Shown one piece after another: positions 46 through 31,250 of a DNA stretch of 35,247 bases. Origin of the DNA: a bacterium (GTDB lineage Bacteria; Omnitrophota; Gorgyraeia; Gygaellales; Profunditerraquicolaceae); contig JAKAMF010000002.1 in the NCBI GenBank assembly GCA_021813045.1, forward strand, positions 1 through 35,247. The letters run 5' to 3'. The notes under the pieces were generated by a model that did no database searches, was not told the origin of the DNA, and saw nothing but the letters and a program-made list of their open reading frames with translations. Position numbers and translations under genes: made by a program. Numbering within the stretch: the first letter of the stretch is position 1; the number at the start of each line of letters is the position of its first letter.

Positions 46-54
46 CGTCCTAAC

Positions 55-144
55 TGGCGGAGGCGGAAGGATTCGAACCCTCGGTGGGCATACACCCACA
101 ACAGTTTTCAAGACTGCCGCTTTCAACCGCTCAGCCACGCCTCC
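55..144 (-). tRNA. tRNA-Ser (anticodon UGA), CCA encoded
   Basis: The reverse complement reads GGAGGCG-TG-GCTGAGCGGTTGAAAGC-G-GCAGT-CTTGAAA-ACTGT-long variable arm-GAGGG-TTCGAAT-CCTTC-CGCCTCC-G-CCA. It has a 7-bp acceptor stem, a canonical T-loop, and the long variable arm typical of class II tRNA. Confidence 0.93.
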
Positions 145-161
145 GAGCACCAAAATACAAT

Positions 162-851
162 TTAAAGAAAAAGCTGGGAAAATACGGAATTAATTATTCC
201 GGTAGCAACCCCGTAAAATTGGCTAGAAAAATCAATAAAAGAAAACTGTTTAAAAATAAGCCCGAGAAAAAATGAAAACATAAAAACATCACAAATATAA
301 ACCAGAGAATAACCGAAGATAAAATTACTCTTTAAGAAATCTTCCTTCTTCTGACGTAGCGTCTTTGCGCTGAAAATCAGATGTAAAATAAAGGTTAACC
401 CGAAAAGAAACATAAAATACTGAATCAACCTTGGTGAATCTGCCACACGATAAATTAAAAGATAGATTACTGCCAATACCAGCGTGTAAATCGGTACAAG
501 ATATGGAGCGGCCTTAACCAGGGGAGCAAAAAAACTAAATAACCACCCGACTATTTTATGGCCGGCATTATATATCCTTACCGGCTCCCAAAGCAAATGA
601 TAAATAATCAAAAAAGCAACTGCTCCCTGCCAAAAGCGGTTTTGCAGTATCTTATCAATTAGGGAAAACTGATTCAGGAAAGCAACTGTGGCAGAATAAA
701 CAAAAACCAGCAAACACAACCCAAGAATAAATTTTACTACGCCCAAAAACCAATCAAGGGCTTTCTCGGTCTTCGGGCCAAGTTTTAACCCGGGCCCTGG
801 TTTCGCCGGCTGGTCGTCTAATTTAAGGTCCTGGGATTCTTTCTTTGCCAT
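162..851 (-). CDS. Polytopic integral membrane protein of unknown function
   Basis: 229/230-aa ORF. The track start at 854 is TTG and the adjacent ATG is at 851. It has several long hydrophobic segments. Its start overlaps the serS 3' end. I recognise no family. Confidence 0.6.
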
Positions 852-2094
852 CAAGATAAGGCCTTAAGGCCTCCGGAATAATAATCGAACCGTCTTTCTG
901 CTGGTAATTTTCCAGGATTGCCACGAATGTGCGCGCCAAGGCAATTCCCGAGCCGTTTAAAGTATGCACAAAATCTAATTTTTTATCTTTTCCGCGGTAT
1001 TTTATATTCGCGCGGCGGGCTTGAAAACTCCCGAAATTGCTGCAGCTGGAAACCTCCAGCCACTTATCAATTCCCGGGGCATAGGCCTCCAGGTCATAGC
1101 ACTTGGCCGCGGAAAAACTCAAATCTTGCGTTGCCAGCATAAGTACGCGATAACTTAAGCCCAATAATTGCAAAACCTCTTCGGCATCATGGACTAATTT
1201 TTCTAATTCATCATAAGATGTTTCCGGGCGGACAAATTTAACCATTTCCACTTTATCAAACTGATGCACGCGAATCAAACCCTTGGTATCTTTGCCATAA
1301 GATCCGGCTTCCCGGCGGAAACAAGCCGTATAGGCAGCATAATAAACCGGCAAGTCCTCGTCTTTTAATACTTCATCGCGGAAAATATTCGTTACCGGAA
1401 CTTCTGCCGTAGGAATTAAAAATAAATCATCATCTTTGAGCCGGTACATATCCTCTTCCAGTTTGGGCAATTGTCCGGTGCCGGTCATGGAGGCGCGATT
1501 CACTAAAAACGGCGGGAAAATTTCCGTGTAGCCGTGTTTTCTCGTGTGCAGGTCGAGCATAAAATTGATAAGCGCGCGTTCCAGCTTGGCGCCCCAACCT
1601 TTGTAAAGGATCCAATTTGATCCGGTGATCTTGGTGGCGCGGTTAAAATCAACAATATCCAGGTTCTGCGCCAGCTCAATATGAGTTAACGGCTTAAAAT
1701 CTAATTTTTTGCACTCGCCCCAGGAACGCACGACTTTATTCTGCGAAGCGTCTCCGATCGGCAAGGATTCATGCGGAATATTCGGAATAGTCAGGATGAT
1801 TTTATCGATCTGCGGATCCAATTCCTTGAGCTGGGCCTCCAGATCGTCAATATTTTGAGCGATTGCCTTCATTGAGGCAATCTTTGCCTGAGCGTCTTTT
1901 TTTTCTTTTAAGAGTGCCGAGATCTCATCATTGGCTTTATTTTTTTGCGCCCGCAGCTCTTCCAGCTCCAACAAAACTTTTTTGCGCTGGTCAATAATCC
2001 GCACAAAGCCGTCCAGATCAATTTTTAAATTGCGGTCAGCCAGTGCCTTTTTAACTAAATCAACGTTTTCCCGAATGAATTTTAGGTCTAACAT
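823..2094 (-). CDS. serS: Seryl-tRNA synthetase
   Basis: 423 aa with an N-terminal coiled-coil arm. Class II motifs are present: FRREAGS and [18 protein letters not shown]. Confidence 0.96.
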
Positions 2095-2096
2095 AT

Positions 2097-3557
2097 CTAC
2101 CCCTTAATTACTCCCACCGGACGGCTGCGGCATACTCGCTTGGCAATTCCCGCGCCGGCCACCACATCCACCACATCATTAACATCCTTATAGGCCTGGG
2201 GCGCCTCTTCAACAATCGTCCCCCGTCCTGATGCTTTTACCATTATACCCTTGGATTCCAATTCTTTCAATAGCATATCCGCGTTAATCGAACGCGTAGC
2301 AGCCATGCGCGATTTAACCCGGCCGGCCCCGTGACAGGCTGAGCCAAAGGTCTCTTCCTCGGCTTTTTTTGTGCCGGTTAATAAATAAGAATTCCTACCC
2401 ATGTCGCCGGGAATAATTACCGGCTGGCCGATTTTGCGGTAACGCTCGGCCACCTCCGGATGCCCCGGGCCAAAAGCGCGCGTGGCGCCTTTGCGGTGCA
2501 CGCAGAGAGTTTTTTCTTTACCGTCAACTATATGCTTTTCAATTTTAGCAATATTGTGGGCGACATCATAAATCAAAAACATGCCCATTTTCTGCCAGCT
2601 CATTTTCAAAACCCGCTCAAACGCCCGGCGCGCCAAATGCATCAGGCACTGCCGGTTGGCCCAGGCATAATTTGCCGCGCAGCGCATTGCCCCTAAATAA
2701 GCTTTGCCTTCCGGAGAATTAACCGGAGCGCTTGCCAGCTGGCGGTCCGGCACATTGATGTTATATTTAGACAAACAATGCACCATATCCCGGCTGTAAT
2801 CCTCGCAAATCTGATAACCCAACCCGCGCGAACCGGAATGAATCATCAAAGTAATCTGCCCGAGGAATAACCCTAAACTATCGCAGGCCTGACGGTCATA
2901 AAGCTGGTCGATTACCTGCACTTCCACGAAATGATTTCCTGAACCCAGCGTGCCGGATTGCGCCTTGCCCCGGAGATAAGCGCGTTCGGAAACCGCGTCC
3001 GGGTCAGCCCCGCTAATCGCGCCGTTTTCTTCTGTACATTCTAAATCATCCGCGCTGCCCAAGCCCTTTTCCACTGCCCATTTAGCGCCTTTGATTAAAA
3101 TATCTTTCCCTTCTCTGGCGCTTAATTTAATCTCGCCCTTTGAGCCCACACCGGAAGGGATATCGGAAAATAAGGCGCAGGTCAGGTCTTTAATCTTATC
3201 TTTAATATCCTCAAATTCTAAATTGGTCTTGAGCATGCGCACGCCGCAATTAATATCAAAACCTACTCCGCCCGGCGAAACTACGCCTCCGTTTTCCACA
3301 TCGGTTGCCGCTACTCCGCCGATAGGAAACCCATAGCCCCAATGAATATCCGGCATAGCCAAGGACGCCTTAACAATGCCCGGTAAAAATGCCACATTGG
3401 CTACCTGCTCGGCGGCTTTATCGTGGCGGATATCCTTGAGCAATTTTTCGTCGGCATAGATTATTCCGTCCACGCGCATTCCCGGCTTATACGATTTAGG
3501 GATCCGCCAACGATAATCATCAATTTTTTCGATCGGGCCCTGCCAAATCTCAGACAT
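2097..3557 (-). CDS. rtcB: RNA-splicing ligase RtcB (3'-phosphate/5'-hydroxyl RNA ligase), archaeal/eukaryal-like long form
   Basis: About 486 aa with GSGNHF, HRKGAT and HGAGR motifs. The ATG is at 3557 (the track start at 3560 is TTG). The ATG overlaps the last codons of the archease gene. Confidence 0.95.
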
Positions 3558-3963
3558 CAAAAATTACCTCCGCGATCCAGCCGCTCTCATCTTCTTCGAT
3601 TCTTAATTGATGATAAGTCGCCGCCTTAATCTCGGTTTTCATTTTATAATTCTTCGTATCCGCTCCGGAAACTGCCGCCTCCAGAGTAGTATTATTTAAT
3701 TTTTTAATTTTAAAATCGGAAAAAATCAACTGGCGGGTAGCAGACAAAGAAAGCAATTCATTTAGCCAGTTCACAAAAAGCTCAGGCAGGTCGGCACTGC
3801 TTAATTTTACGAGGATTGGTTTTTTCTTGGTAGCAGGTTTAGACTTACGACAGGCGATATCAAACATCGCCAAAGCAACCGCAGTAAACAATCCTTCCAG
3901 GCTCTTTGCCTTCACCCGGATGCCGATATCTGCGGTATGTTCGAGGAATTCGTAGGATTTCAA
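3550..3963 (-). CDS. Archease (RtcB activator)
   Basis: 137 aa with the N-terminal signature YEFLEHTADIGIRV. The only possible start is TTG at 3963, because an in-frame TAA lies 2 codons upstream. No obvious Shine-Dalgarno sequence. Confidence 0.88.
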   Translation of the reverse strand: MKSYEFLEHTADIGIRVKAKSLEGLFTAVALAMFDIACRKSKPATKKKPILVKLSSADLPELFVNWLNELLSLSATRQLIFSDFKIKKLNNTTLEAAVSGADTKNYKMKTEIKAATYHQLRIEEDESGWIAEVIFDV

Positions 3964-3979
3964 TGTGGTTTAATCAGGT

Positions 3980-4111
3980 TACCGCGTCAAAACGCTAAAA
4001 AATTCCTAAACGATAAAATAGGAATTTTTTAGCTGACGCGGTATAAATTCGCGCACGCCCCGCTTACCGCGGGGCTATAACTTATGTCGCGCAAAGCGCG
4101 ACATAAGTTAT
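3980..4111. repeat. Three-hairpin intergenic palindromic element, copy 1
   Basis: Hairpin A spans 3980-4043: outer 10 bp TACCGCGTCA/TGACGCGGTA and inner 15 bp GCTAAAAAATTCCTA/TAGGAATTTTTTAGC. Hairpin B spans 4057-4075: GCCCCGC-ttacc-GCGGGGC. Hairpin C spans 4077-4111: a perfect 16-bp stem ATAACTTATGTCGCGC-aaa-GCGCGACATAAGTTAT. The same architecture and much of the sequence recur inverted at 30074-30191. Confidence 0.85.
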
Positions 4112-4122
4112 GCGCTCATTTA

Positions 4123-4195
4123 TGAGCCGCCTTGGAATCGAACCAAGAACCTTGACCTTAAGAGGGTCCTGCTCCACCAATTGAGCTAGCGGCCC
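4123..4195 (-). tRNA. tRNA-Lys (anticodon CUU)
   Basis: The reverse complement reads GGGCCGC-TA-GCTC-AATTGGTG-GAGC-A-GGACC-CTCTTAA-GGTCA-AGGTT-CTTGG-TTCGATT-CCAAG-GCGGCTC-A. CCA is not encoded. Confidence 0.92.
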
Positions 4196-4254
4196 GGATT
4201 AACGAATAGTTGGAGTATTTTAGCAAAAATTACCTGTTTTCGCAACATAGATTG

Positions 4255-4327
4255 TGCGCCTGGCAGGAGTCGGACCTGCAACGCCTAGCTCCGAAGGCTA
4301 GCGCTCTATCCATTGAGCTACAGGCGC
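4255..4327 (-). tRNA. tRNA-Arg (anticodon UCG) with atypical T-loop
   Basis: The reverse complement reads GCGCCTG-TA-GCTC-AATGGATA-GAGC-G-CTAGC-CTTCGGA-GCTAG-GCGTT-GCAGG-TCCGACT-CCTGC-CAGGCGC-A. The cloverleaf is good, but the T-loop reads TCCGACT (C at position 55). Confidence 0.85.
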
Positions 4328-4340
4328 AAAAACAAAAATC

Positions 4341-5060
4341 TCAGACTATCTCTGCTTTATTGCCAAAGACTGCCCTAATCTTCTTTAGTTTGGCCGAAGT
4401 AAGCCCCAGGATACCCGGCTCTGTAGTAGCGCGTACCGGAGAATTAAGCTGAATCTTATCGGGATTGATCTGCGTAACCGCCTCTTTGAGCTTCTTGATT
4501 TCCCGAGGACTGTCATTGATGCCGCGGGCCAGCATTATTTCCAGCCAGATCAGGCCGCGAAAAGATTTTCGCAATTTTACCAGGCCATCAATAATCGTGG
4601 AAATTTTAATTCCTGCTAATGGCCGGTCGATTTTTTCAAAAGCAGCTTGCGTTGCTGCGTCTAACGAAGGGATAATCAAGTCCGCATTGGCTAACTCCTT
4701 ACGTACTAACGTGCTGACTAGATGAGCGGAGTTAGTAATCACGCAAACCTTGGTTTTAGTTAAATTTTTAATTTTTTTAATTAAAACGGATAATTTGGAA
4801 TTTAAGGTCGGTTCGCCAAAGCCGGAAAAAGTAATAAATTTAAGCTGCCGGGCCTGAACGGGATTATCTTTCAGCCAATCTTTAAGCTCGGTAATAATCT
4901 CGCTTTCTTTAACGTATTCTTTTCTTTGCCCGGTTTTTAAGGTAGTCCGGCCCAGTTGGCAATAGAGGCAATCAAAACTGCAGGCCTTGTAAGCAGTCAG
5001 GCTGATTCCTAAAGACAAACCCAGCCGGCGCGATTTAACCGGGCCATAAATATATCTCAT
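4341..5060 (-). CDS. Radical SAM protein (COG0731-like; substrate unknown)
   Basis: 239 aa. N-terminal YGPVKSRRLGLSLGISL is followed by the CSFDCLYCQ (CxxxCxxC) cluster motif. A GGAG Shine-Dalgarno sequence lies upstream. Confidence 0.85.
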   Translation of the reverse strand: MRYIYGPVKSRRLGLSLGISLTAYKACSFDCLYCQLGRTTLKTGQRKEYVKESEIITELKDWLKDNPVQARQLKFITFSGFGEPTLNSKLSVLIKKIKNLTKTKVCVITNSAHLVSTLVRKELANADLIIPSLDAATQAAFEKIDRPLAGIKISTIIDGLVKLRKSFRGLIWLEIMLARGINDSPREIKKLKEAVTQINPDKIQLNSPVRATTEPGILGLTSAKLKKIRAVFGNKAEIV

Positions 5061-5072
5061 TTTTGCTCCAAT

Positions 5073-5120
5073 TAAAAACCCCCGTCTTAGCCCTTACCTT
5101 TGGGCTGGCTAAAACGGGGG
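5073..5120 (-). terminator. Rho-independent terminator after the CBM48 gene
   Basis: Minus-strand RNA pairs CCCCCGU..UUAGCC with GGCUAA..ACGGGGG (plus 5079-5092 with 5107-5120). It is followed by UUUUUAAU (plus 5071-5078). Confidence 0.7.
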
Positions 5121-5139
5121 CCAAAAAATTGTTTAAACT

Positions 5140-5427
5140 TTACCTGACTTCAACCAGCGAATTCTGCGTGCCAAAAGCGTTGGAAACCGCTGCCCGGTGC
5201 GGATCATTGATCCAATTCCCGTCAACAAAAAACTTATATTCATATCTTCCGGGTTTTAAATTCATCTTGATCACCCAATTACCGTCTTTGTCTTTTTTGG
5301 CGGTGGTAGTCCGGGTGTTCCAATTGTTAAAACTTCCGGCTAAAGTTACTTTTCTCGCCTGTGGAGCATGCAGTCTGAATTCCATTGCCTTTGACTTGCT
5401 TGCGCTTGCACAACAAATTCTTGCCAT
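5140..5427 (-). CDS. Stand-alone CBM48 / early-set glycogen-binding domain protein
   Basis: 95 aa. The motif GSFNNWN...GRYEYKFFVDGNWINDP is typical of the AMPK-beta/isoamylase N-terminal carbohydrate-binding module. A strong AAGGAGG Shine-Dalgarno sequence is present. Confidence 0.8.
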   Translation of the reverse strand: MARICCASASKSKAMEFRLHAPQARKVTLAGSFNNWNTRTTTAKKDKDGNWVIKMNLKPGRYEYKFFVDGNWINDPHRAAVSNAFGTQNSLVEVR

Positions 5428-5462
5428 ATTTCTACCTCCTTTAAGGTCAAGTACCTTTTTTA

Positions 5463-5491
5463 AATCTACATGACAAAGCAGGGACTGTCAA
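5463..5491 (-). promoter_or_regulatory. Sigma-70-like promoter for the CBM48 gene
   Basis: On the minus strand: TTGACA (5486-5491), a 17-nt spacer, then TAGATT (5463-5468). Confidence 0.5.
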
Positions 5492-5497
5492 GAAAAA

Positions 5498-6301
5498 TTA
5501 TACCGCAACGATAGACAGCCCTTTTTTCTTCGCCAGATTTGTTGCTGCCGCCTGGTCTATAAAAAGCGTTTTGCCCGCTTCAAAAGCCAAACAAGCTGCC
5601 TTAGCCCGGATTAAATTCTTTACCGTATTTAGCCCGATTACCGGAATATCAAAACGCATATCCTGGTCAGGCTTAGCGGTTTTAACCAAAGTAAATCCGC
5701 CGCGGCTGATCGATCCCGCGCGCCTGATCAAATTATCTGTCCCTTCTAACGCCTCAACCGCGACAATCGCTTTATTTTTAATCGCTACGGTTTGCCCGAT
5801 ATCCAGCCCGCCGATCTGCTTGGCTAAGGCAAACCCGAAATCAATATCTTCCCGGATTCCCGCTGGCGGCTCCTGCGTCAAGGCGCCTTTTTTCGGCAGA
5901 TAGCCCTCGACAAAAGTAGTTGAATCTAAAAACTCAAAGCCTTCCTGATTGAATTTATTCACGATCGCCCCAAAGATCGTATCCGCGCGCTGGTCCTTAA
6001 TCCGGCTCAAAAGCTCTTTTAGCTGCGGGTCCCTTTGGATTTCTCCGCTGAATAAACGCACCGGGCTGATCTGACCGGCCATAACTATTTTTTTTACGCC
6101 TTCATTTTTAAAAATAGAAAATATCTTTGAGTATTCGCTTAAAGACAGCCAGTGGATTTTATCGACGAGATTATTTAACGCGCGGGAAGTATCGCCTTTA
6201 ACTGCCACGGCAATTACAGAATAGCCGTTTTTTCTGGCAGCTTGGGCAAAAATAAGCGGAAATTTTCTGTTTCCGGCGATCAAGCCGATTTTTTCCGGCA
6301 T
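5498..6301 (-). CDS. lpxI: UDP-2,3-diacylglucosamine pyrophosphatase LpxI (DUF1009 family)
   Basis: 267 aa with IGLIAGNRKFP at the N-terminus and an EGTDNLIRRAG motif. It sits directly downstream of lpxA, and its ATG shares 1 nt with the lpxA stop codon. Confidence 0.85.
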   Translation of the reverse strand: MPEKIGLIAGNRKFPLIFAQAARKNGYSVIAVAVKGDTSRALNNLVDKIHWLSLSEYSKIFSIFKNEGVKKIVMAGQISPVRLFSGEIQRDPQLKELLSRIKDQRADTIFGAIVNKFNQEGFEFLDSTTFVEGYLPKKGALTQEPPAGIREDIDFGFALAKQIGGLDIGQTVAIKNKAIVAVEALEGTDNLIRRAGSISRGGFTLVKTAKPDQDMRFDIPVIGLNTVKNLIRAKAACLAFEAGKTLFIDQAAATNLAKKKGLSIVAV

Positions 6302-7086
6302 TATTCCCTGCTTGAGCGGCTGAGGCCGCGCTCGGTAGTTTTACAGAAGTTAATCAGGTAAGCGGATTCCTGAGTCGGCGATGAAATTTCTTTTTCTATT
6401 GTTTCTAATGCATGCTTGACCGTCAGCCCGCTGTTGAATAAAATCTTAAAGGCTGCGTCCAATTGCTTGATCGAATCACGCGAGATCCCGCTGCGGCGCA
6501 AACCGATCAAATTTAAACCATAAACCTGTGCCGGATGCCCGTCGCAGGTTGAAAACGGCGGAATATCCTGCACAACCTTGGAACACCCTCCGATAATCGA
6601 AAGCTTGCCGACTTTAACAAATTGATGGATCGCCACCAATCCGCCGATTACTGCCTTATCCTCAATCGTCACATGGCCGGCAAAAGTGCCTCCGTTGGCG
6701 ATCACGCAGCCGTTGCCAATCAGGCAATCGTGCGCCACATGGGAATAGGCCATAAAAAGATTATTATTGCCGACAATAGTCTTAGAACCCTCTCCGGTCC
6801 CCGGATTAAAAGTACAAAATTCGCGGATAATATTGCCGCTGCCGATCTCTAAAAAGCTTTTTTCGCCTTTATACTTTAAATCCTGCGGAGCGCTACCGAT
6901 AACCGCTCCGGTAAAAATCTGGCAATCCGGGCCGATAGTCGTATAGCCTTCAATCAGGCAATTAGCGCCGATCTTCGCGGCCTTGCCGATCGAAACGTTA
7001 TCGCCGATAATCGTATGCGGGCCGATTACGCTATCTTCGCTGATCTTGGCTTTTTTAGAAATTATCGCGGTAGGATGAATATTCAT
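6301..7086 (-). CDS. lpxA: Acyl-ACP--UDP-N-acetylglucosamine O-acyltransferase
   Basis: 261 aa with left-handed beta-helix hexapeptide repeats. Its position in the lpx cluster supports the call. Confidence 0.93.
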   Translation of the reverse strand: MNIHPTAIISKKAKISEDSVIGPHTIIGDNVSIGKAAKIGANCLIEGYTTIGPDCQIFTGAVIGSAPQDLKYKGEKSFLEIGSGNIIREFCTFNPGTGEGSKTIVGNNNLFMAYSHVAHDCLIGNGCVIANGGTFAGHVTIEDKAVIGGLVAIHQFVKVGKLSIIGGCSKVVQDIPPFSTCDGHPAQVYGLNLIGLRRSGISRDSIKQLDAAFKILFNSGLTVKHALETIEKEISSPTQESAYLINFCKTTERGLSRSSRE

Positions 7087-7087
7087 T

Positions 7088-8413
7088 TTAAGCCTCGTTT
7101 GCCTCGGCTAAAGCGAACATGAAATCCGCTTCAACCACGACTTTACCGTCTACATAAGCCTTGCCGGAAACCTGGCCGGTCTTGGACTTGATTTTCCCGG
7201 CAACCACCTCAAAAGTTAACTGGTCACCCGGCACAACGGTCTTACGGAATTTTACATTATTGATCGCCATAAAAAACGCCAGCTTACCGCGGTTTTCATC
7301 CGGCGAAAGCATCATGATCCCGCCGACCTGCGCCATGGCCTCTAACATCAATACGCCCGGCATTACCGGCCGCTGCGGAAAATGGCCTTTAAAAAAATAA
7401 TCATTAATCGTTACGTTCTTGATCCCTACGGCGCGCTTGCCCGGTTCGAGATCCAAAATCCTGTCCACAAATAAAAACGGATCGCGGTGCGGCAGTATCT
7501 TCATGATTTCAACCGCCTCAAGCTTCCGCCCCATTATCGGCTGATAAGCAATTGCGATCCCGCCGGACATTGTCTTTTGTTTCTGCTGGATGATTTTCTT
7601 AACCAGCTTCAAATTTAAAGCGTGGCCGCTTCTCAAAGCGATAATGTGTCCTTTAATCGGCTGGCCCAAAAGATTAAGGTCGCCCAATAAATCCAGCATT
7701 TTATGCCGGATGCACTCATCATCAAAACGCAGTTTATTTTTAACTACGCCGCTTTTGCCAAAAACCAGGGTATTCTCATAATTAGCGCCTAATCCCACTC
7801 CCTGCTGCTGCAGATCCTGGGCTTCTTCTTCTAAACAAAAAGTGCGCGCGGCGGCAATCTCAGATTCAAACGATGTTCCGTCGACGATTAAGCTCTTGAA
7901 TTGCGATTTAAGAAAGACGTGCTCATAATTAAGCGTGTAAGAAACTTTAAATCCGTCAAAAGGCAGAGCAACCAAACTAGCGTTCTCTTCTTCGACATAG
8001 ATCGGTTCCCGGATCACAAAATAATTACGCGGGCTGTCTAACTCTTTGATCCCGGCGCTCTTTAGGGCCCGAATAAAATCCAGCCCGCTGCCGTCCATGC
8101 CGGGTACTTCATTATTATTTATTTCAATGACTAAGTTATCGATACCCAAGCCAAAAAGCGCGGACATCAAATGCTCAATTGTGTGGATCTCCGCCGGAGA
8201 TTTACCGATCGAGGTCCGGCGCGGGCTTTTTAGCTGCACAGAAACATTTTCCGCTGACGCCTTAATCTGCGGAGCACCCGGCAAATCAACCCGGATAAAA
8301 TTAATCCCTGTGTCTGCCGCCGCCGGCTTAAAAACAAGCTTAGCCTTATTCCCGGTATGCAGGCCGATGCCTTCCAGGCTGACTTCTTTTATGATTGTTT
8401 TCTGGTTGTCCAT
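7088..8413 (-). CDS. lpxC/fabZ: Bifunctional UDP-3-O-acyl-GlcNAc deacetylase / 3-hydroxyacyl-ACP dehydratase (LpxC-FabZ fusion)
   Basis: 441 aa. The N-terminal half carries LpxC motifs (GIGLHTGNKAKL, HTIEHLMSAL). The C-terminal half carries FabZ motifs (LPHRDPFLFVDRI, GHFPQRPVMPGVLMLEAMAQ). Confidence 0.95.
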   Translation of the reverse strand: MDNQKTIIKEVSLEGIGLHTGNKAKLVFKPAAADTGINFIRVDLPGAPQIKASAENVSVQLKSPRRTSIGKSPAEIHTIEHLMSALFGLGIDNLVIEINNNEVPGMDGSGLDFIRALKSAGIKELDSPRNYFVIREPIYVEEENASLVALPFDGFKVSYTLNYEHVFLKSQFKSLIVDGTSFESEIAAARTFCLEEEAQDLQQQGVGLGANYENTLVFGKSGVVKNKLRFDDECIRHKMLDLLGDLNLLGQPIKGHIIALRSGHALNLKLVKKIIQQKQKTMSGGIAIAYQPIMGRKLEAVEIMKILPHRDPFLFVDRILDLEPGKRAVGIKNVTINDYFFKGHFPQRPVMPGVLMLEAMAQVGGIMMLSPDENRGKLAFFMAINNVKFRKTVVPGDQLTFEVVAGKIKSKTGQVSGKAYVDGKVVVEADFMFALAEANEA

Positions 8414-8417
8414 TTTA

Positions 8418-9443
8418 TTATTTTTTCTCTAACTCTTCGATTTTTTTCTTTAATTCTTTTACCGTTTCGAATAATTTCGGCAGGTTTTGCAAGCAGGCAT
8501 TCACCCGCATAGCTGCTTCATGCGGCCTGGCCGGATAGCCGGAAACAAAGGTATTCGCCGGCACGGATTTAGTCACGCCGCCCTGCGCCCCGACAATCGC
8601 GTTATCTCCGATCGTAATGTGGCCGACCAATCCCGCCTGTCCGGCAAGAATCACGTTATTGCCGATAATCGTGCTGCCGGAAACTCCCGCCTGCGCGACA
8701 ATCAGCGAATTCTCGCCGATGATAACATTGTGGGCGATATGCACCAGGTTATCTATTTTTGTCCCCTTACCGACTACGGTCTTGTCAAAACGCGCGCGGT
8801 CAATCGTAGTATTGGCGCCGATCTCTACGTCGTCCTCTAAAACAACTGTTCCGGTTTGCGGGATATGACGATGGCTACCCTCAACCGTTACATAACCAAA
8901 ACCCTCAGAGCCGATCACCGCGCCGTTATGAATAATTACACGGTCGCCGATCGAAATATCCTCTCTGATTGAAACGCTGGGATAAATTAAACAATCCCGT
9001 CCGATGCGGGTATTCTTACCGATAAAAGAATTACTATAAACTATCGTATTATCGCCTAAGTTTACTCCCTCTTCAATAGTCACAAAAGAGCCGATGGCAA
9101 CGTTCTTGCCTAATTTTGCGTTTTTCGCGATCAGCGCGGTCGAGTGTATGCCCCGGGGATGACCAAGATCGGATTTGGTAAAAAGCGCGGCGGCTTTAAT
9201 AAAAGCTAAAGACGGGTTGTCTACGCGAATCAGCGGCTTAGCGGATGATTGTATGTCTTTGCCGACAATCACCGCGCTAGCCGCTGTCTTATCTAAATAT
9301 GGCAGATACTTGGGATTGGCTAAAAATGTAAGTTCCCCGGATTCTGCCTCTTTAATTCCACAAACACCTTTAATTAAAATATCCGCGTTACCGGCAATTT
9401 CTCCGCCGACCAAACGCGCTATTTCTTTTAATGTTTTACTCAC
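8418..9443 (-). CDS. lpxD: UDP-3-O-acylglucosamine N-acyltransferase
   Basis: 341 aa with the N-terminal LpxD-type domain followed by hexapeptide repeats. GTG start codon. Confidence 0.93.
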
Positions 9444-9452
9444 TTGCCTAAT

Positions 9453-9959
9453 TTATTTCTTATAACCCTTATTGACTATATCAATAATTTTATCAGTGAT
9501 ATCCAATGTTTTATCCTGATAAACCAGAACCCGGTCATTAAAGACCATGATAAAACCTTGCGCCTTGGCATAGGTTTTAACCGCGTCTTCGATATCTTTC
9601 AGGATCTCTTTCATTTTTTCATCCTGATCCTTGCGCAGTTCGGTTTGCTGCTGGCGGTCATAATCCTTTAAAGCATTGACCTTGGCCTCAAAATTCGGCT
9701 GGCTGGCCTGTTTTTCTTTGTCAGTCATTAAAGCAATTTTGTCCTGCAATTGCTTGATTTCATTGATTTTCTTGTCTCTGGCATCGGTGTAGATTTTTTC
9801 TTTGTCGCCTAATGTTTTGTCGTAATCTTTGGTTTTTTTGTATTCGCTGAAGGTTTTGCTTAAATCAATGTAAGCAAATTTCTCCTGCGCCAAAGCCACT
9901 TTGGTTAAAACCAATGAAGCTGCAAACACTGCTGCTAAAACCACCGCCAACTTCTTCAT
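9453..9959 (-). CDS. skp: Periplasmic chaperone Skp/OmpH
   Basis: 168 aa with a signal peptide (MKKLAVVLAAVFAASLVLTKVALA) and a coiled-coil-rich body. It lies between bamA and lpxD, as in many diderms. A GGAGGAG Shine-Dalgarno sequence is present. Confidence 0.88.
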   Translation of the reverse strand: MKKLAVVLAAVFAASLVLTKVALAQEKFAYIDLSKTFSEYKKTKDYDKTLGDKEKIYTDARDKKINEIKQLQDKIALMTDKEKQASQPNFEAKVNALKDYDRQQQTELRKDQDEKMKEILKDIEDAVKTYAKAQGFIMVFNDRVLVYQDKTLDITDKIIDIVNKGYKK

Positions 9960-18734: not shown

Positions 18735-18805
18735 CTGGGACGTATGGATTCGAACCATAATAGCGGGATCCAAATTCCCGAGTCCTACCATTGGACGACG
18801 TCCCA
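18735..18805 (-). tRNA. tRNA-Gln (anticodon UUG)
   Basis: The reverse complement reads TGGGACG-TC-GTCC-AATGGTA-GGAC-T-CGGGA-ATTTGGA-TCCCG-CTAT-TATGG-TTCGAAT-CCATA-CGTCCCA-G. It has the U1-A72 pair typical of tRNA-Gln. Confidence 0.9.
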
Positions 18806-23932: not shown

Positions 23933-24445
23933 CTAATCTTTGTGAGCGTGAAAGCCAATCGGCGGCTTTGGCTTAACCAACGGTGGCTCAAGAAGCTGCT
24001 TAATGGCTTGGAAAACTATAGCAAATTGCTTATCGTATTTCTTTTCCATCCCCTCAATTTTTCGCTTAAGGTCGACATTGGTCAAAAGCATCCTGCGCAA
24101 TTGAGTAAACGCACGCATAATTTGAATATTCACTTGTATAGCTCTTTTGCTATGCAATACTCCCGAAAGCATAGCCACGCCCTGTTCAGTAAAAACATAT
24201 GGGAGCTTGCGGGTGCCGCCCCAACTTGATATGCCAATTTGGCATATCAAGTTTTGAAGCTCTTCTTTTGTCAATTGAAACATAAAATCATCCGGGAACC
24301 TCTCTAAATTGCGTCTTACTTGACGGGTTAACTGGCTCGTATCAACCTCATAAAGTTTAGCTAAGTCCCTATCTAACATTACTCTTTTTCCGCGTATTAA
24401 CAAAATCTTTGCGGCAATTACGTCAACTAAAATAGCATTAGACAT
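23933..24445 (-). CDS. ORF6N domain-containing protein (KilA-N-related DNA-binding domain plus coiled-coil tail)
   Basis: 170 aa. The motif IRGKRVMLDRDLAKLYEVDTSQLTRQVRRNLERFPDDFMFQLT...WGGTRKLPYVFTEQGVAMLSGVL is the ORF6N signature as I remember it. It appears monocistronic, and a GGGGGG-rich Shine-Dalgarno sequence is present. Confidence 0.85.
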   Translation of the reverse strand: MSNAILVDVIAAKILLIRGKRVMLDRDLAKLYEVDTSQLTRQVRRNLERFPDDFMFQLTKEELQNLICQIGISSWGGTRKLPYVFTEQGVAMLSGVLHSKRAIQVNIQIMRAFTQLRRMLLTNVDLKRKIEGMEKKYDKQFAIVFQAIKQLLEPPLVKPKPPIGFHAHKD

Positions 24446-24504
24446 TTTAGCCCCCCTTTCTACTTTAATAGACGTAAGAAGAAGCGAAATCTAACGAAAA
24501 TTTT

Positions 24505-24533
24505 ATACTATCTTGACTTACAGCAGGTATTAA
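24505..24533 (-). promoter_or_regulatory. Candidate promoter for the ORF6N gene
   Basis: On the minus strand: TTAATA (24528-24533), a 17-nt spacer, then TAGTAT (24505-24510). Confidence 0.4.
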
Positions 24534-24536
24534 ACC

Positions 24537-24553
24537 GGTCACAATTTGTGACC
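24537..24553. promoter_or_regulatory. Palindromic operator-like site between divergent promoters
   Basis: GGTCACA-att-TGTGACC: 7-bp perfect arms and a 3-nt centre. The loop is too tight for a useful RNA hairpin. It overlaps the -35 of the plus-strand promoter and lies 3 nt from the -35 of the ORF6N promoter. Confidence 0.5.
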
Positions 24554-24574
24554 AGCTCATATCTTAACTATATT
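24546..24574 (+). promoter_or_regulatory. Candidate promoter driving the structured element
   Basis: TTGTGA (24546-24551), a 17-nt spacer, then TATATT (24569-24574). The predicted start near 24581 coincides with the first hairpin of the structured region. Confidence 0.45.
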
Positions 24575-24580
24575 GCCGGC

Positions 24581-24869
24581 GGATGACTACCTGAGTCATT
24601 CATAATGGCATCACAGAATGTGATACCATTATAGCGGCTGGCTTGCGCTGTAGTTTCGAGGGACGTAAAGGCGAGGAGCGGGCATGGTTCGCGCATCCGG
24701 CTCCTCAGGCAAAAGCTTTTATTACACTCACCCGGATGCGCGAGAGCGACGAAGCCGACCCGAGCGCAGGCCCCTGGATTTAAACTGTTGCGCGCGGCAT
24801 CGAAGATGCCGCGCGGCTCGCAGGGCCGCGCCAAGCGTTCCCGAGAAACTATAGCGCACAGCCAGCCGC
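24581..24869 (+). ncRNA. Candidate novel structured ncRNA (GC-rich; orientation tentative)
   Basis: Hand-folded. Hairpins at 24581-24601 and 24602-24632. A closing rod of about 40 bp pairs 24634-24673 with 24829-24869 (one G.U, a tandem G.A/A.G, two 1-nt bulges, one small internal loop). An 11-bp hairpin spans 24791-24815 with a GAA loop. A 7-bp helix pairs 24769-24776 with 24821-24827. Two overlapping helices, 24673-24679/24700-24706 and 24690-24700/24732-24742, form a pseudoknot or a switch. G+C is about 63% by hand count over 24631-24870. No credible ORF. Confidence 0.5.
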
Positions 24870-24890
24870 AAGAGATAGCTAGAAATATCC

Positions 24891-24918
24891 TTGCATTCCC
24901 GGTATTCTGGTCTATAAT
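24891..24918 (+). promoter_or_regulatory. Sigma-70-like promoter for the ppiD-like gene
   Basis: TTGCAT (24891-24896), a 16-nt spacer, then a perfect TATAAT (24913-24918). A GGAGGA Shine-Dalgarno sequence lies at 24956-24961. Confidence 0.6.
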
Positions 24919-24964
24919 TAACCTAAATTTGACTTAATCTGACAATTTATTCTACGGAGGAAAC

Positions 24965-26386
24965 ATGCTCAAACAATTACGCAATAAGAAAACTGCTCGA
25001 TGGATCTGGATCGGACTGGCAATATTGGTGCTGCCGGCTTTTGTTTTTTGGGGCCTGGGCAGCGCGGTAAAAAGCCGCGACAAGAACCAGCCAAGCTTAG
25101 CCGGAAGAATCTTTGACCGGCCCATAAGTTTTCCCGAATATAAAGACGCTTATGAAGCAGTAAGAAATCAGGCGGTAATGCAGTTGGGAGACAATTTCTC
25201 TCAAATGCAGCAATATTTGAATTTGGATAGCCAGGCCTGGGAAAGATTAACCCTTTTGGCGGAAGCAAAAAAGCGCAGGATCAGCGCCTCTAACCAAGAA
25301 ATTATTGAATTAATTGCCGGTTACCCGTTTTTTCAACGCCGCGGTAAATTTAACGACCGGCTTTACGAAGAAACGATTAAATATGTTTTTCACACCCAAT
25401 CGCGTATCTTTGAAGAACAGATCCGACAAAGCATTATTATCTCTAAACTTTTTCAACAGATCACCAACTCGCTAACGATCAGCCCGGAAGAAGTAAAGCA
25501 GGAGTACCGCAAAGTCAATGAACAGGTAAGTATTAACTATATCGCCGCGCTTCCGGTTGATTTTGAAAATAAAGAAGCCTCAGTCAGCGAAGAAGCGCTT
25601 AAGCAATACTACGAGGCCAATAAACTAGAATTTAAGCAGCCGCTTACTTTTAACCTGGAATATATTACTTCGGAATCCCGGGATAAAATCGAATCCCTGC
25701 TTCCCCATCTTAACAAAAAAGATTATTTTAATAAACTAGTCAAAGATGCCGGGCTAGCTCTAAAAGAAACCGGCTATTTTAACGAAACCTCCCCCATCCC
25801 GGGGATCGGCTGGGCGCCGCAGGTTTTAGAATTGCTGGTTAAATCTAAAACCGGACAATTCCTGCCGGTGATCAGCGTAGATAAAAATTATTATCTTTTG
25901 AAAATAAAAGAAAGAAAAGAACCTTATATCCCGGAATTCGGACAGATTAAAGATAAAGTTAAAGATGTCTACATTAAAAATCAGGCCCGCAAAACCGCTA
26001 AAGCCAAAATCGAAGAATGCCTGATGAATCTGAAAAATATAGCCGCCAAAAATCCCCGGGCAGCCGACCTGAATAACCAGGCAAAAATATCCGGCCTAAA
26101 AAGCGGAGCTACCGGGCTTTTTAAATACGGAAGTTATATTGAGGGAATCGGAAGTTCTGATATTTTTTGGCAGGAAGCCGAGCGGTTAAAAGATGATGAA
26201 TTCTCTCCGATTATCGAACAGCCTTCCGGATACTATATCATCAAAGTAAAATCCATCCAGCCGATTGACGAGAATAAATTCAAAGAAGAAGCCTCTGAGT
26301 TCACCCAGAGGCTTCTTTTAAACAAGAAACAACATGAATTTGAATTATTTCTTGAAGGCTTACTGAAAAAAACCCAGCGTTTTTAA
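24965..26386 (+). CDS. PpiD/SurA-N-like periplasmic chaperone (peptidyl-prolyl isomerase family), membrane-anchored
   Basis: 473 aa with an N-terminal anchor (ARWIWIGLAILVLPAFVFWG) followed by a SurA_N-type chaperone region. This is the only plus-strand gene in the window. Confidence 0.8.
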   Translation: MLKQLRNKKTARWIWIGLAILVLPAFVFWGLGSAVKSRDKNQPSLAGRIFDRPISFPEYKDAYEAVRNQAVMQLGDNFSQMQQYLNLDSQAWERLTLLAEAKKRRISASNQEIIELIAGYPFFQRRGKFNDRLYEETIKYVFHTQSRIFEEQIRQSIIISKLFQQITNSLTISPEEVKQEYRKVNEQVSINYIAALPVDFENKEASVSEEALKQYYEANKLEFKQPLTFNLEYITSESRDKIESLLPHLNKKDYFNKLVKDAGLALKETGYFNETSPIPGIGWAPQVLELLVKSKTGQFLPVISVDKNYYLLKIKERKEPYIPEFGQIKDKVKDVYIKNQARKTAKAKIEECLMNLKNIAAKNPRAADLNNQAKISGLKSGATGLFKYGSYIEGIGSSDIFWQEAERLKDDEFSPIIEQPSGYYIIKVKSIQPIDENKFKEEASEFTQRLLLNKKQHEFELFLEGLLKKTQRF

Positions 26387-30194: not shown

Positions 30195-31250
30195 TTAGGC
30201 AAGGGACAAACCCTTCCTGTATAACCGGGAAACTTCGGCTAATGCCCCTAAAATACCCTCTGCTTTACCTGTATCTAACGTACCCAAACCGCAGCTGGGG
30301 CTAAAAAGCAAGTTTGACTCAATCAACTGCCGGCTGACCCCCTTCTGTTCTAAGCCGGCAATACCTTCGGTTACCTTTTTCAGCAATAATTCCGGGGTAA
30401 CCCGGGGGCCAAATTCAGCCGTTGGCACGATCCCCCAGCAGAGCATGCCTCCGCGCTGTAAAAAACCTTTCAGGTTAGCCGCGTAAAGCGCCAAACGTTC
30501 TAAATAATCAAAGGCGTCAAAATTAATAATATCTACGCCCGCGGCATCCATCAACATCGACCAGTCGGTATTGCCGCAGCAATGCACGCCGATCAGCGTA
30601 TCAGCCGATTTAACCCCGCCGGTAATTTCCTTAAGCACCTCCACTACTTTTTCCCGGGTTATCGCGGTATAGGCCGAGCCAAAAGCCGCCAAATACGGCT
30701 CATCAAAAAAAATGACCAGCGGTTTATTGAATTTCCTCAGTAAATTTAGCTGCCAAAGCGCCTTCATAATCAGCCCTTTGGTAATTACCTGCATAAAAAC
30801 CTCATCGTGCAAAAGCGCGACCTCGTTTTCATCGCTAATCCCGGCGGCAAAAGTAAACGGCCCGGTAACATGGCATTTAATATATTTTACCGCGGATAAA
30901 TCCGCCCCTTCCAGGCGCCGGAAAAATTTATATAAACCTAAAGCGAACTTATCGGAAATTTTGAAATACTCAATATCCTGCGCGATGATCCGCTCATAAA
31001 ATTTTTCTAATTTTTCTTCCCGGTTAGCCGGATTATAAACTACGCCTTCCTCGGTTGCCTCAAGACATGGCAGGTTTTCGCTGAACTGAGCAATCATTGA
31101 TTCAAAGTGCGAACGTTTAGGCAGCTGCGGCCAAAAAGGAATTTCCGGACAGGACCTAAAAATCAGGTTCAACGCCGTTTCGGCATCCGTAAAAGGCAAG
31201 CTTCCTACTCCCGTAGCCAAACCGCTTAGCGCGGATCTTTCTAAGGTCAT
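30195..31250 (-). CDS. Cobalamin-independent methionine synthase-like / UROD-superfamily methyltransferase-like protein
   Basis: 351 aa with putative metal-ligand motifs GVHCCGNTDW and SPSCGLG, reminiscent of the MetE C-terminal/MtaA-type fold. Exact function is not assignable. Confidence 0.6.
   Translation of the reverse strand: MTLERSALSGLATGVGSLPFTDAETALNLIFRSCPEIPFWPQLPKRSHFESMIAQFSENLPCLEATEEGVVYNPANREEKLEKFYERIIAQDIEYFKISDKFALGLYKFFRRLEGADLSAVKYIKCHVTGPFTFAAGISDENEVALLHDEVFMQVITKGLIMKALWQLNLLRKFNKPLVIFFDEPYLAAFGSAYTAITREKVVEVLKEITGGVKSADTLIGVHCCGNTDWSMLMDAAGVDIINFDAFDYLERLALYAANLKGFLQRGGMLCWGIVPTAEFGPRVTPELLLKKVTEGIAGLEQKGVSRQLIESNLLFSPSCGLGTLDTGKAEGILGALAEVSRLYRKGLSLA

Follow-up and report, generated by a model that had tools for sequence, protein, structure and literature searches.

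A dispersed family of strand-specific folded repeats in the intergenic spacers of Omnitrophota

The Omnitrophota are an uncultured phylum of ultra-small cells with compact genomes, and we asked what fills the longest gene-free stretch in a segment of one of them. The segment, hereafter the window, comprises positions 1 to 35,247 of contig JAKAMF010000002.1 in GenBank assembly GCA_021813045.1. It is chromosomal DNA of a Candidatus Omnitrophota metagenome-assembled genome, with genes for BamA, GlmU, DnaB, SSB, HisG, subunits of pyruvate:ferredoxin oxidoreductase, and other housekeeping functions. An identical PpiD protein is encoded on GCA_027425555.1 and on ENA and Logan contigs, and the PpiD homologues that carry names are all from Omnitrophota. 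The gap lies between an ORF6N gene and ppiD (24446-24964, 519 nt). An earlier note, made from the letters alone, had rightly singled it out as the longest noncoding stretch and proposed that it marks a single undescribed structured RNA gene. The proposal does not hold: positions 24632-24871 are one copy of a dispersed, previously unannotated repeat family of Omnitrophota, which turns over between relatives and lies in random orientation. The element is not a unique small RNA (sRNA) gene, not a leader of ppiD, and not a housekeeping RNA.

G+C content is 0.57-0.60 over 24600-24899 against 0.37-0.42 on either side (200-nt windows), and it reaches 0.63 across 24631-24872, in agreement with the core of about 63% G+C and the AT-rich flanks reported before. 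The plus-strand fold of 24581-24869 has an energy of -151.3 kcal/mol (z = -9.0, with none of 200 shuffles equal to it), and the minus-strand fold has z = -8.0. These scores and the inverted repeats listed in Table 1 establish the base-paired GC island as genuine and well outside what chance would produce. Two short contigs of the window population (loci L003 and L005; loci carry L numbers throughout), which start 20 and 37 nt from the 3' end of the element, were the first sign of a repeat or of a heterogeneous population.

Census and conserved fold

We scanned JGI metagenome contigs with an 18-nt core probe, TAAAGGCGANGAGCGGGCA, which gave at least 120 loci. A second block (GAAGCCGA...GAGCG) stood at the expected distance in 61 loci among the matches listed. 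The other TAAAGGCGANGAGCGGGCA loci, largely on human-gut contigs, lacked every other family feature and are thus chance matches or a different conserved sequence. A covariance model of 172 positions, R1, was built from 37 members with the window copy in the seed, and a search with it returned 80 copies at E < 1e-10 in 61 loci (366 kb), many of them without the exact probe. The plus strand of the window (24631-24872) matched model positions 1-172 of 172 with 126.1 bits (E about 1e-23), and copies outside the seed, namely that of L006 and more than 40 others, scored 78-165 bits. All loci tested for taxon were Omnitrophota, the organism of L161 included. Secondary copies, which the probe had not selected, occurred at an estimated one per 19 kb of fetched DNA.

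The literature we searched contained no report of interspersed repeats or noncoding RNAs (ncRNAs) of Omnitrophota, and the motif strings of the family had no match in papers searched by text. A BLASTN search in distant mode with 24560-24900 found nothing among PLSDB plasmids or INPHARED phages. Five IMG/VR matches to the block 1 and block 2 patterns were rejected as chance, the other blocks being absent. All 55 loci from a GTDB genome scan with GAAGCCGACNNGAGCGCAGG were also chance matches, in high-GC or unrelated taxa; this block is less conserved and reads GAAGCCGAYNNGAGCGAG in most copies. The 20-nt GAAGCCGACNNGAGCGCAGG also occurs at at least ten sites in Streptomyces sp. MMS24-I2-30 (L023, L027, L028, L033, L038, L045, L048, L054, L056, and L061), each time followed by GTCGCCGTGC, and there represents an unrelated repeat of that genome. 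A six-frame pseudo-protein query for spurious open reading frames (ORFs) on homologous elements gave no match at E <= 10.

When the 37 members were aligned and the alignment (A3) was folded, a common three-way junction emerged in all copies, consisting of a closing rod (P1), a helix with tandem G.A pairs (P2), a variable hairpin (P3), and a second hairpin (P4). Units are GC-rich and about 165-260 nt long across the family; coordinates in the window are given in Table 1. P1 comprises 30-40 bp; it has a bulged U and a conserved tandem G.A (CGAG/CGAG), and its 3' arm frequently contains an AGG(A) bulge. P2 follows the consensus CG-UAAA-GGC-GA-S-GA-GC with GC-GA-S'-GA-A-GCC-GAYN-CG, so that two tandem G.A steps stand on either side of a covarying Watson-Crick pair (S:S'; CG in 40 copies, GC in 28), and it is closed by a UAAA/GAYN internal loop. 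We take the tandem G.A in its CGAG context to be sheared, and it and the UAA/GAN-type internal loop are presumably motifs typical of folded RNA. A kink-turn reading of P2 was ruled out by the covarying S:S' pair and by extra nucleotides on both strands relative to a kink-turn with a three-nucleotide bulge. Type B, a variant of the family, has an ordinary 9-bp helix (GUUCGGCCC/GGGCCGAAC) in place of the GA-rich P2 of type A, and this ordinary helix at the same place confirms P2 as a helix. The P4 stem differs freely among copies yet is always compensated, even to the point of being wholly rewritten among otherwise near-identical copies, and its loop N-C-GCNG is conserved.

The window copy carries two additions to this plan. 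Its P3 loop (24701-24731) is the insert of a long-form subfamily with relatives at L173, L105, L144, L163, L113, and L073. P3 loops are mostly large and AT-rich, which made GNRA and UNCG tetraloops uninformative as a discriminator of RNA from DNA. A GAGGAGC/GCTCCTC helix joins the P2 5' strand to this insert in the long-form subfamily only (the window, L173, L105, L144, L163, and L113); it shows zero compensatory changes and is broken in L073. A switch acting through this helix is conceivable but finds no support. The second addition, near P4, contains a hairpin that lengthens in the window to a perfect 11 bp (inverted repeat I5) and there competes with the P4 5' strand, whereas the shorter hairpins of L006 and L091 stand beside P4 without overlap.

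The fold drawn by hand in the earlier note captured much of this structure. The outer 30 bp of its closing rod of about 40 bp belong to P1, but the inner 10 bp (24664-24673/24829-24838) give way to the pairs 24664-65/24761-62 that close P2. Two helices that it read as a pseudoknot or switch (24673-24679/24700-24706, present here as 24673-24682/24697-24706, and 24690-24700/24732-24742) both exist, and the latter is P3; the pseudoknot or switch itself lacks support, the former helix being limited to the long form and without compensation. A 7-bp helix proposed at 24769-24776/24821-24827 is not conserved, and P4 forms there instead. The perfect 11-bp hairpin at 24791-24815 is present, but within an insert common only to L006 and L091, and two 5' hairpins (24581-24601 and 24602-24632) likewise exist but are missing from relatives and form no part of the family. 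With the family structure imposed, the window copy folds at -118 kcal/mol, compared with -130.5 kcal/mol unconstrained.

Compensatory changes carry the case for this structure. The independent MAFFT alignment A3 contains compensated pairs at 28 of 40 positions. An 80-copy alignment, A4, which was fitted to the model and therefore somewhat inflates pair counts, has double changes at 38 of the 40 pairs. Standard pairs fill 96.3% of its cells, versus 72.7% with shuffled partners, and its covariation score is 0.575, compared with 0.155 in shuffles (0 of 500 reach the observed value) and 0.06-0.12 in slid-partner controls. The covariation check on relatives that the earlier note had suggested thus returns a conserved fold with abundant compensatory changes.

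The changes also reveal the folded strand. Predicted pairs include 61 G.U or U.G against 17 A.C or C.A (P = 6e-7), and the plus strand of the window is therefore the one that folds, as had been favored from two features that prove genuine and reappear throughout the family, the G.U at 24650/24852 and the tandem G.A at 24658-59/24843-44. Among copies flanked by co-directional genes, those in sense (25:6) and those in antisense orientation (15:6) have the same bias, which is thus independent of host-gene orientation and does not stem from passive transcription along with host genes.

Table 1. Parts of the window copy and neighboring features
Feature	Position	Strand	Details and basis
P1 5' arm	24632-24663	+	1x2 internal loop at 24644, G.U at 24650, tandem G.A at 24658-24659; all P1 pairs covary, 79 distinct copies
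P2 5' strand (block 1), CG-UAAA-GGC-GA-G-GA-GC	24664-24679	+	Invariant A3 columns; most conserved type A sequence
P2 pairs	24664-65/24761-62, 24670-72/24754-56, 24675/24750, 24678-79/24746-47	+	Model-to-window pair map
P2-P3 junction, GGGCAUGGU	24680-24688	+	Invariant in A3; GAGCGGGCANGG common to types A and B
P3 hairpin, 12-bp stem 24689-24700/24732-24743	24689-24743	+	Inverted repeat I4; pairs 70-73/162-165 covary
P2 3' strand (block 2), GC-GA-C-GA-A-GCC-GACC-CG	24746-24762	+	A3, covariation, and pair map
Conserved junction AGCGCAG	24763-24769	+	Near-invariant GAGCG in A3
Insert, otherwise only in L006 and L091	24770-24810	+	Alignments A2 and A3; hairpin GGCATC-GAA-GATGCC at 24796-24810
P4 hairpin, 7-bp stem GCGCGGC/GCCGCGC (24811-24817/24825-24831) plus C24819-G24824	24811-24831	+	Loop U-C-GCAG conserved; all eight pairs covary
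P4-P1 junction CAAGCGU (block 5)	24832-24838	+	(C/G)(A/G)AGCG kept in A3
P1 3' arm	24839-24871	+	Model-to-window pair map; inverted repeats I1, I6
Two AT-rich hairpins 5' of the element	24581-24631	.	In minimum free energy fold; missing from relatives' flanks; outside the conserved family unit
ppiD promoter-like TTGCAT-17-TATAAT	24884-24912	+	15 nt downstream of the element; also L006:4093-4121 and L007:3316-3344
ORF6N gene	23933-24445	minus	
ppiD	24965-26386	plus	

Turnover, orientation, and ends of the copies

The two closest genomes retain the hisG...ppiD neighborhood and differ in what it contains. At L006 (PpiD 82% identical), the ORF6N gene is absent and a homologue of the element occupies the same spacer (L006:3844-4065). 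Its junction blocks are identical to those of the window, and its closing rod has been almost fully rewritten by compensatory changes and is still paired, the P1 arms of the two copies differing at most positions. At L007-L010 (PpiD 81% identical), the spacer is 170 bp long and holds neither the element nor ORF6N. The window copy appears to sit in an insertion hotspot, the hisG-ppiD spacer, which it shares with an ORF6N gene missing from both sister genomes. ORF6N was considered as a cognate protein and set aside, with an ORF6N gene or remnant near a copy in only 3 of about 60 loci. An intact ORF6N homologue (64% identical) lies at L186:760-1269 (-), about 300 nt from a family copy, and a remnant at L086:1207-1284 lies beside a copy.

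This spacer bears directly on whether the element is a cis-regulatory leader, riboswitch, or alternative-structure switch for ppiD. Such a role would account for its position upstream of ppiD on the same strand and for the two helices of the window copy that share nucleotides. However, the promoter-like site of ppiD, near consensus and of sigma-70 type, is found downstream of the element and is kept in L006 as well as in the element-less L007, and the element is therefore presumably not needed for ppiD expression. Family copies are antisense to the downstream gene as often as sense (by crude ORF calling, 32 co-oriented and 42 opposed, with most copies between co-directional genes), which is random. 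All 80 copies lie in spacers, beside such unrelated neighbors as tmk, uvrC, purD, and glutamine synthetase III. Distant PpiD homologues have no such upstream extension, and the competing helix occurs in one subfamily only and is broken in one member. We therefore regard a leader of ppiD as very improbable. The orientation count also ruled out a 5' untranslated region element co-oriented with its downstream gene, an idea raised by start codons 20-40 nt after several copies.

The database call for PpiD at L006 (P0002, 516 amino acids) begins inside the element (L006:4001-4129), which gives the protein a spurious 43-residue N-terminal extension derived from the repeat; among PpiD homologues, only this one extends into an element. 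Also in the hisG-ppiD spacer of L006 is another palindromic element, rod-like, about 190 nt long and unrelated to the family (L006:3605-3797; fold z = -3.2).

Turnover is also evident elsewhere. Loci L161 and L191, whose glutamine synthetase III proteins are 96% identical and whose DNA is about 84% identical, share one copy in an orthologous spacer. L191 has only this copy, whereas L161 has four in 13.7 kb, the extras lying in spacers enlarged by 240-650 nt. The shared copy is a mosaic, with P1, P2, and P4 matching a paralogue and P3 matching the positional orthologue, and chimeric arms recur in L117 and L180. At L189, which is syntenic with positions 48-9806 of the window, a copy is embedded in a larger hairpin whose arms flank it; the corresponding site of the window carries just a compact hairpin of terminator-like appearance. 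Upstream of uvrC, L173 has a copy that shares 93.6% identity over 141 nt with that of the window, and L006-type copies lie upstream of tmk in L091 and L121; these come from two metagenomes that also contain the sister organism with the empty hisG-ppiD spacer. Some lineages are densely populated, as in L161 and with six copies in 7.9 kb at L162. Copies also occur at three separate places (L131, L142, and L150) on one 780-kb contig. Contigs end inside copies at L003 and L005, from the window population, and at L141, L154, and L172.

The ends of the copies speak to a classical cut-and-paste miniature inverted-repeat transposable element (MITE), that is, duplex terminal inverted repeats moved by the transposase of an insertion sequence (IS) with a target-site duplication of fixed length. 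Many dispersed, exclusively intergenic copies would fit, as would termini (GCGGGUG...CAGGACCCGC) that are conserved in many copies, a slight surplus of short terminal direct repeats (longest flanking repeat 2.0 nt on average, versus 1.4 nt in controls), and a 9-nt overlap at one L161/L191 junction. Against it, beyond the outermost 6-8 nt, which are conserved in many copies, both arms covary rather than being conserved. The bases flanking GCGG...CCGC pair with each other (A-U in 40 copies and U-A in 21) instead of forming a direct repeat. No duplication of at least 3 bp was consistent among copies, and no repeat length dominated. The interior is as constrained as the ends, and the G.U bias points to a single-stranded form. 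No transposase-bearing parent IS appeared among the partial nhmmer matches, which were contig-end truncations and single-copy pieces, and no dedicated search for separated halves was made. A MITE of this kind is accordingly improbable. The earlier note had held that many near-identical copies with target-site duplications would indicate one; copies are indeed many, but they are diverged, with covarying stems and without such duplications.

The rod runs at least 5 bp into nonconserved flank in 28% of copies, versus 2.4% with shuffled partners; with its ends paired in this way, the unit has no evident free terminus. Many copies have next to them fragments that look like a deleted 3' arm. A motif of about 30 nt, CATTCGCTCGAAAaCCGaCAGattCATTT, occurs 14 times and always 5' of the nearest copy, with the copy in either orientation and mostly 6-33 nt away (L072, L073, L086, L095, L099, L134, L135, L140, L153, L162, L167, L169, and L186). 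A related sequence, AATGAGCGAGAAAACCGGCAGGAGCATT, lies 3' of copies, and both resemble the deleted 3' arm. Three further sequences recur in these genomes. A longer upstream module, CTCGGGATTCCC..GCTGCTTTGGCTAAAA, is found at six loci. The GC palindrome GCCTGCC(TGCC)GGCAGGCAGGC occurs within copies, between P4 and the P1 3' arm, at L100:1293-1478 and L150:3485-3698, and also in the 3' flank at L116, as a further mini-repeat of the same genomes. A terminator-like hairpin, TAGGGACAGTCCCC-loop-GGGGACAGTCCCTA followed by a T-run, is reused in the flanks at L144, L153, L159 (about 2390-2430), and L169.

An independent sRNA gene finds no support, with neither a sigma-70-type promoter at fixed distance nor a terminator. 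Among sigma-70-type signals, no positional peak of -10 (TANNNT) or -35 (TTGNNN) hexamers was detected in 79 upstream flanks, and no terminator-like site was found. An internal promoter likewise left no positional signal, and no -10 hexamer follows the TTGACA within the 3' arm. The TTGTGA-17-TATATT promoter proposed in the earlier note lies outside the element, is missing from relatives, and came from a motif as frequent as chance would have it (1 site, versus 1.2 in shuffles). Two TCACA-N3-TGTGA palindromes stand between ORF6N and the element (TCACAATTTGTGA and TCACAGAATGTGA): one at 24539-24551, which overlaps the -35 hexamer of that proposed promoter, and one at 24611-24623, which forms the core of the 24602-24632 hairpin. 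They are operator-like in appearance and missing from relatives' flanks.

Selfish repeat or functional RNA

Based on these observations, the family is probably a selfish, nonautonomous repeat of the REP/BIME/BOX kind, propagated or retained via a folded single strand; the mobility itself we infer. Its propagation or retention would depend on a folded single strand of fixed polarity, either single-stranded DNA or RNA, and terminal inverted repeats read as duplex DNA would not drive it. If transcribed, the element would add a very stable RNA domain to any transcript crossing it.

The closest likeness is to REP, BIME, and REPIN sequences, which are known from enterobacteria and Pseudomonas and are mobilized by RAYT, a TnpA-like protein of the IS200/IS605 kind. 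They too are extragenic palindromic repeats of high copy number that fill spacers, make no target-site duplication, and have mosaic structure, and their function or mobility presumably requires a hairpin in a single strand of one polarity. The Y/Z inverted doublets of BIMEs resemble the arrangement of types A and B, which stand head to head in all seven adjacent pairs; high copy number in extragenic DNA and inverted doublets of variants are thus common to both. The family cannot be assigned to REP units as such, however. These are simple hairpins of 20-40 nt with a GTAG or CGTC tag, whereas the family unit has 165-260 nt and folds around a three-way junction of conserved sequence with four covarying helices. 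No RAYT gene was noticed in flanks of up to 10 kb.

BOX, RUP, and SPRITE of Streptococcus pneumoniae are described as likely parasitic and able to affect co-transcribed genes (PMC3049150). Together with the ERIC and Correia repeats, they share with the family an interspersed distribution, a length of about 100-300 nt, extensive secondary structure, either orientation, a modular mosaic build, restriction to a lineage, and slow turnover. RUP, Correia, and ERIC differ in having sequence-conserved terminal inverted repeats and TA-type duplications, where the family has covarying arms and no consistent duplication, and the family interior is structurally constrained over its whole length. HEARO and other omega RNAs of IscB, reRNAs of TnpB, and PATE, structured RNAs of mobile elements that are also found as copies without an ORF, are likewise large, GC-rich, covarying folds that are multi-copy, patchy, and independent of their neighbors' function. 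However, those RNAs lie at a transposon end beside IscB or TnpB with a free guide end, whereas both ends of the family unit are locked in the rod; moreover, Rfam gave no match to HEARO, and no IscB or TnpB lies near the window copy.

Several observations weigh against a selfish repeat. The 35-kb window holds a single copy. No clean junction of a filled with an empty site was obtained, insertions carrying 40-500 nt extra relative to relatives. No transposase, reverse transcriptase, TnpB, or IscB occurs in the annotated 9.4-35 kb of the window, just as the earlier note had stated for the latter three, and nothing transposase-like was seen by eye among the genes between copies, on which Pfam was not run. 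Random insertion does not explain the pairs less than 200 nt apart, all seven of which are head to head (-,+) and combine two different variants, types A and B. Finally, structure over the whole length, conserved junction nucleotides, tandem sheared G.A, and a UAAA/GAN-type loop would be expected of a functional RNA and not of junk. Among the genes scanned in 9.4-35 kb, the only nonhousekeeping ones are ORF6N and an ORF of 351 amino acids (30195-31250) without a Pfam match. A retron msr-msd and an IscB/TnpB omega RNA were rejected for want of the corresponding enzymes among the same genes, and an integron attC because copies lie in both orientations between housekeeping genes, although intI was not searched for.

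Three paralogous head-to-head units (type A, spacer, type B) share their flanks on the 780-kb contig Ga0074199_1000003, at L131:3393-3866, L150:3485-3973, and L142:3275-3667. Their inner rods are lengthened by more than 12 bp of flank that resembles arm remnants of an older copy, and this sequence arrangement suggests nested insertion.

The serious rival is a multi-copy functional structured RNA, such as a ribonucleoprotein (RNP) scaffold, a ribozyme, or trans-acting sRNAs with variable P3 and P4, for which dispersal would be secondary and whose RNA might itself be mobile in the manner of a short interspersed element (SINE) or retrozyme. It gains from a fold that is strand-specific whatever the orientation of host genes, from covariation in every helix, from the invariant junction nucleotides (GAGCGGGCANGG, GAGCG) and the conserved P4 loop, and from presumed RNA-like motifs. 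P4 stems fully rewritten in near-identical copies speak for it as well, and head-to-head pairs of variants could share a bidirectional promoter region. We nevertheless consider it a minority possibility. There is no -10/-35 enrichment upstream and no terminator, the paired ends often run into flank and leave no defined free end, and fast gain and loss among close relatives, together with decayed fragments, are atypical of needed genes. What keeps it a serious rival is that the constraint spans the whole unit, that its motifs are RNA-like, that P4 stems are rewritten, and that the A/B pairs are ordered.

A bolder and somewhat more doubtful form of this idea is that the family may be a new class of large structured RNA, a self-processing ribozyme or RNP scaffold, that spread in Omnitrophota as its own mobile unit. 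The junction (UAAAGGCGA-S-GAGCGGGCA, GAGCGA-S'-GAAGCCGA, GAGCG, and the P4 loop) would then be the active or protein-binding core, and P3 and P4, which are rewritten freely, would serve as modules for specificity or as spacers. The orphan structured RNA motifs of Weinberg et al. 2010 (PMC2864571) offer a parallel, being restricted to lineages, supported by covariation, without known function, and sometimes present several times per genome. The family differs from them in its repeat-like copy density and turnover, and no Rfam 15 model matches it.

A last candidate is a divergent form of a housekeeping RNA, be it 6S, RNase P, SRP, tmRNA, or Y RNA, that escapes existing models. The pairing of both ends within a long rod, which 6S and Y RNA share, and the poor sampling of Omnitrophota would allow for one. 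Yet Rfam 15 (4227 models, among them riboswitches, HEARO, ROOL, GOLLD, OLE, and raiA) returned no family at gathering score or at E <= 10 on 24400-25000, apart from a meaningless 11.9-bit partial match outside the element, which agrees with the earlier note's report of no RNase P, SRP, or tmRNA signature motifs. On related loci, none reached gathering score in 18 and none E <= 1 in seven. The presence of several copies in one genome (as many as 6 within 7.9 kb) and absence from the same spacer in a sister genome leave such an RNA scarcely credible. The only Rfam matches in the window are four tRNA genes, all on the minus strand (58-144, 4123-4195, 4255-4327, and 18735-18805).

Meaning for Omnitrophota genomes

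Spacers filled with a four-helix repeat of 170-250 nt supported by covariation represent an unannotated layer of genome dynamics in Omnitrophota, and the family accounts for assembly breaks in their intergenic DNA. A model of the R1 type, used for annotation in the manner of Rfam, would reduce spurious calls of novel ncRNAs and spurious ORF extensions such as the 43 residues of PpiD at L006. For a repeat of REP-like or MITE-like type, the element has uncommon complexity, and selection acts on one of its strands. Should the fold act as RNA, it would be a candidate for a new class of ribozyme or RNP; if it acts as single-stranded DNA, it would point to an unrecognized, structure-specific mobilization system. 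Were the RNA itself mobile, the family would be a bacterial counterpart of SINEs or retrozymes. The family is most likely a genomic parasite, with a minority chance that it represents a new RNA class.

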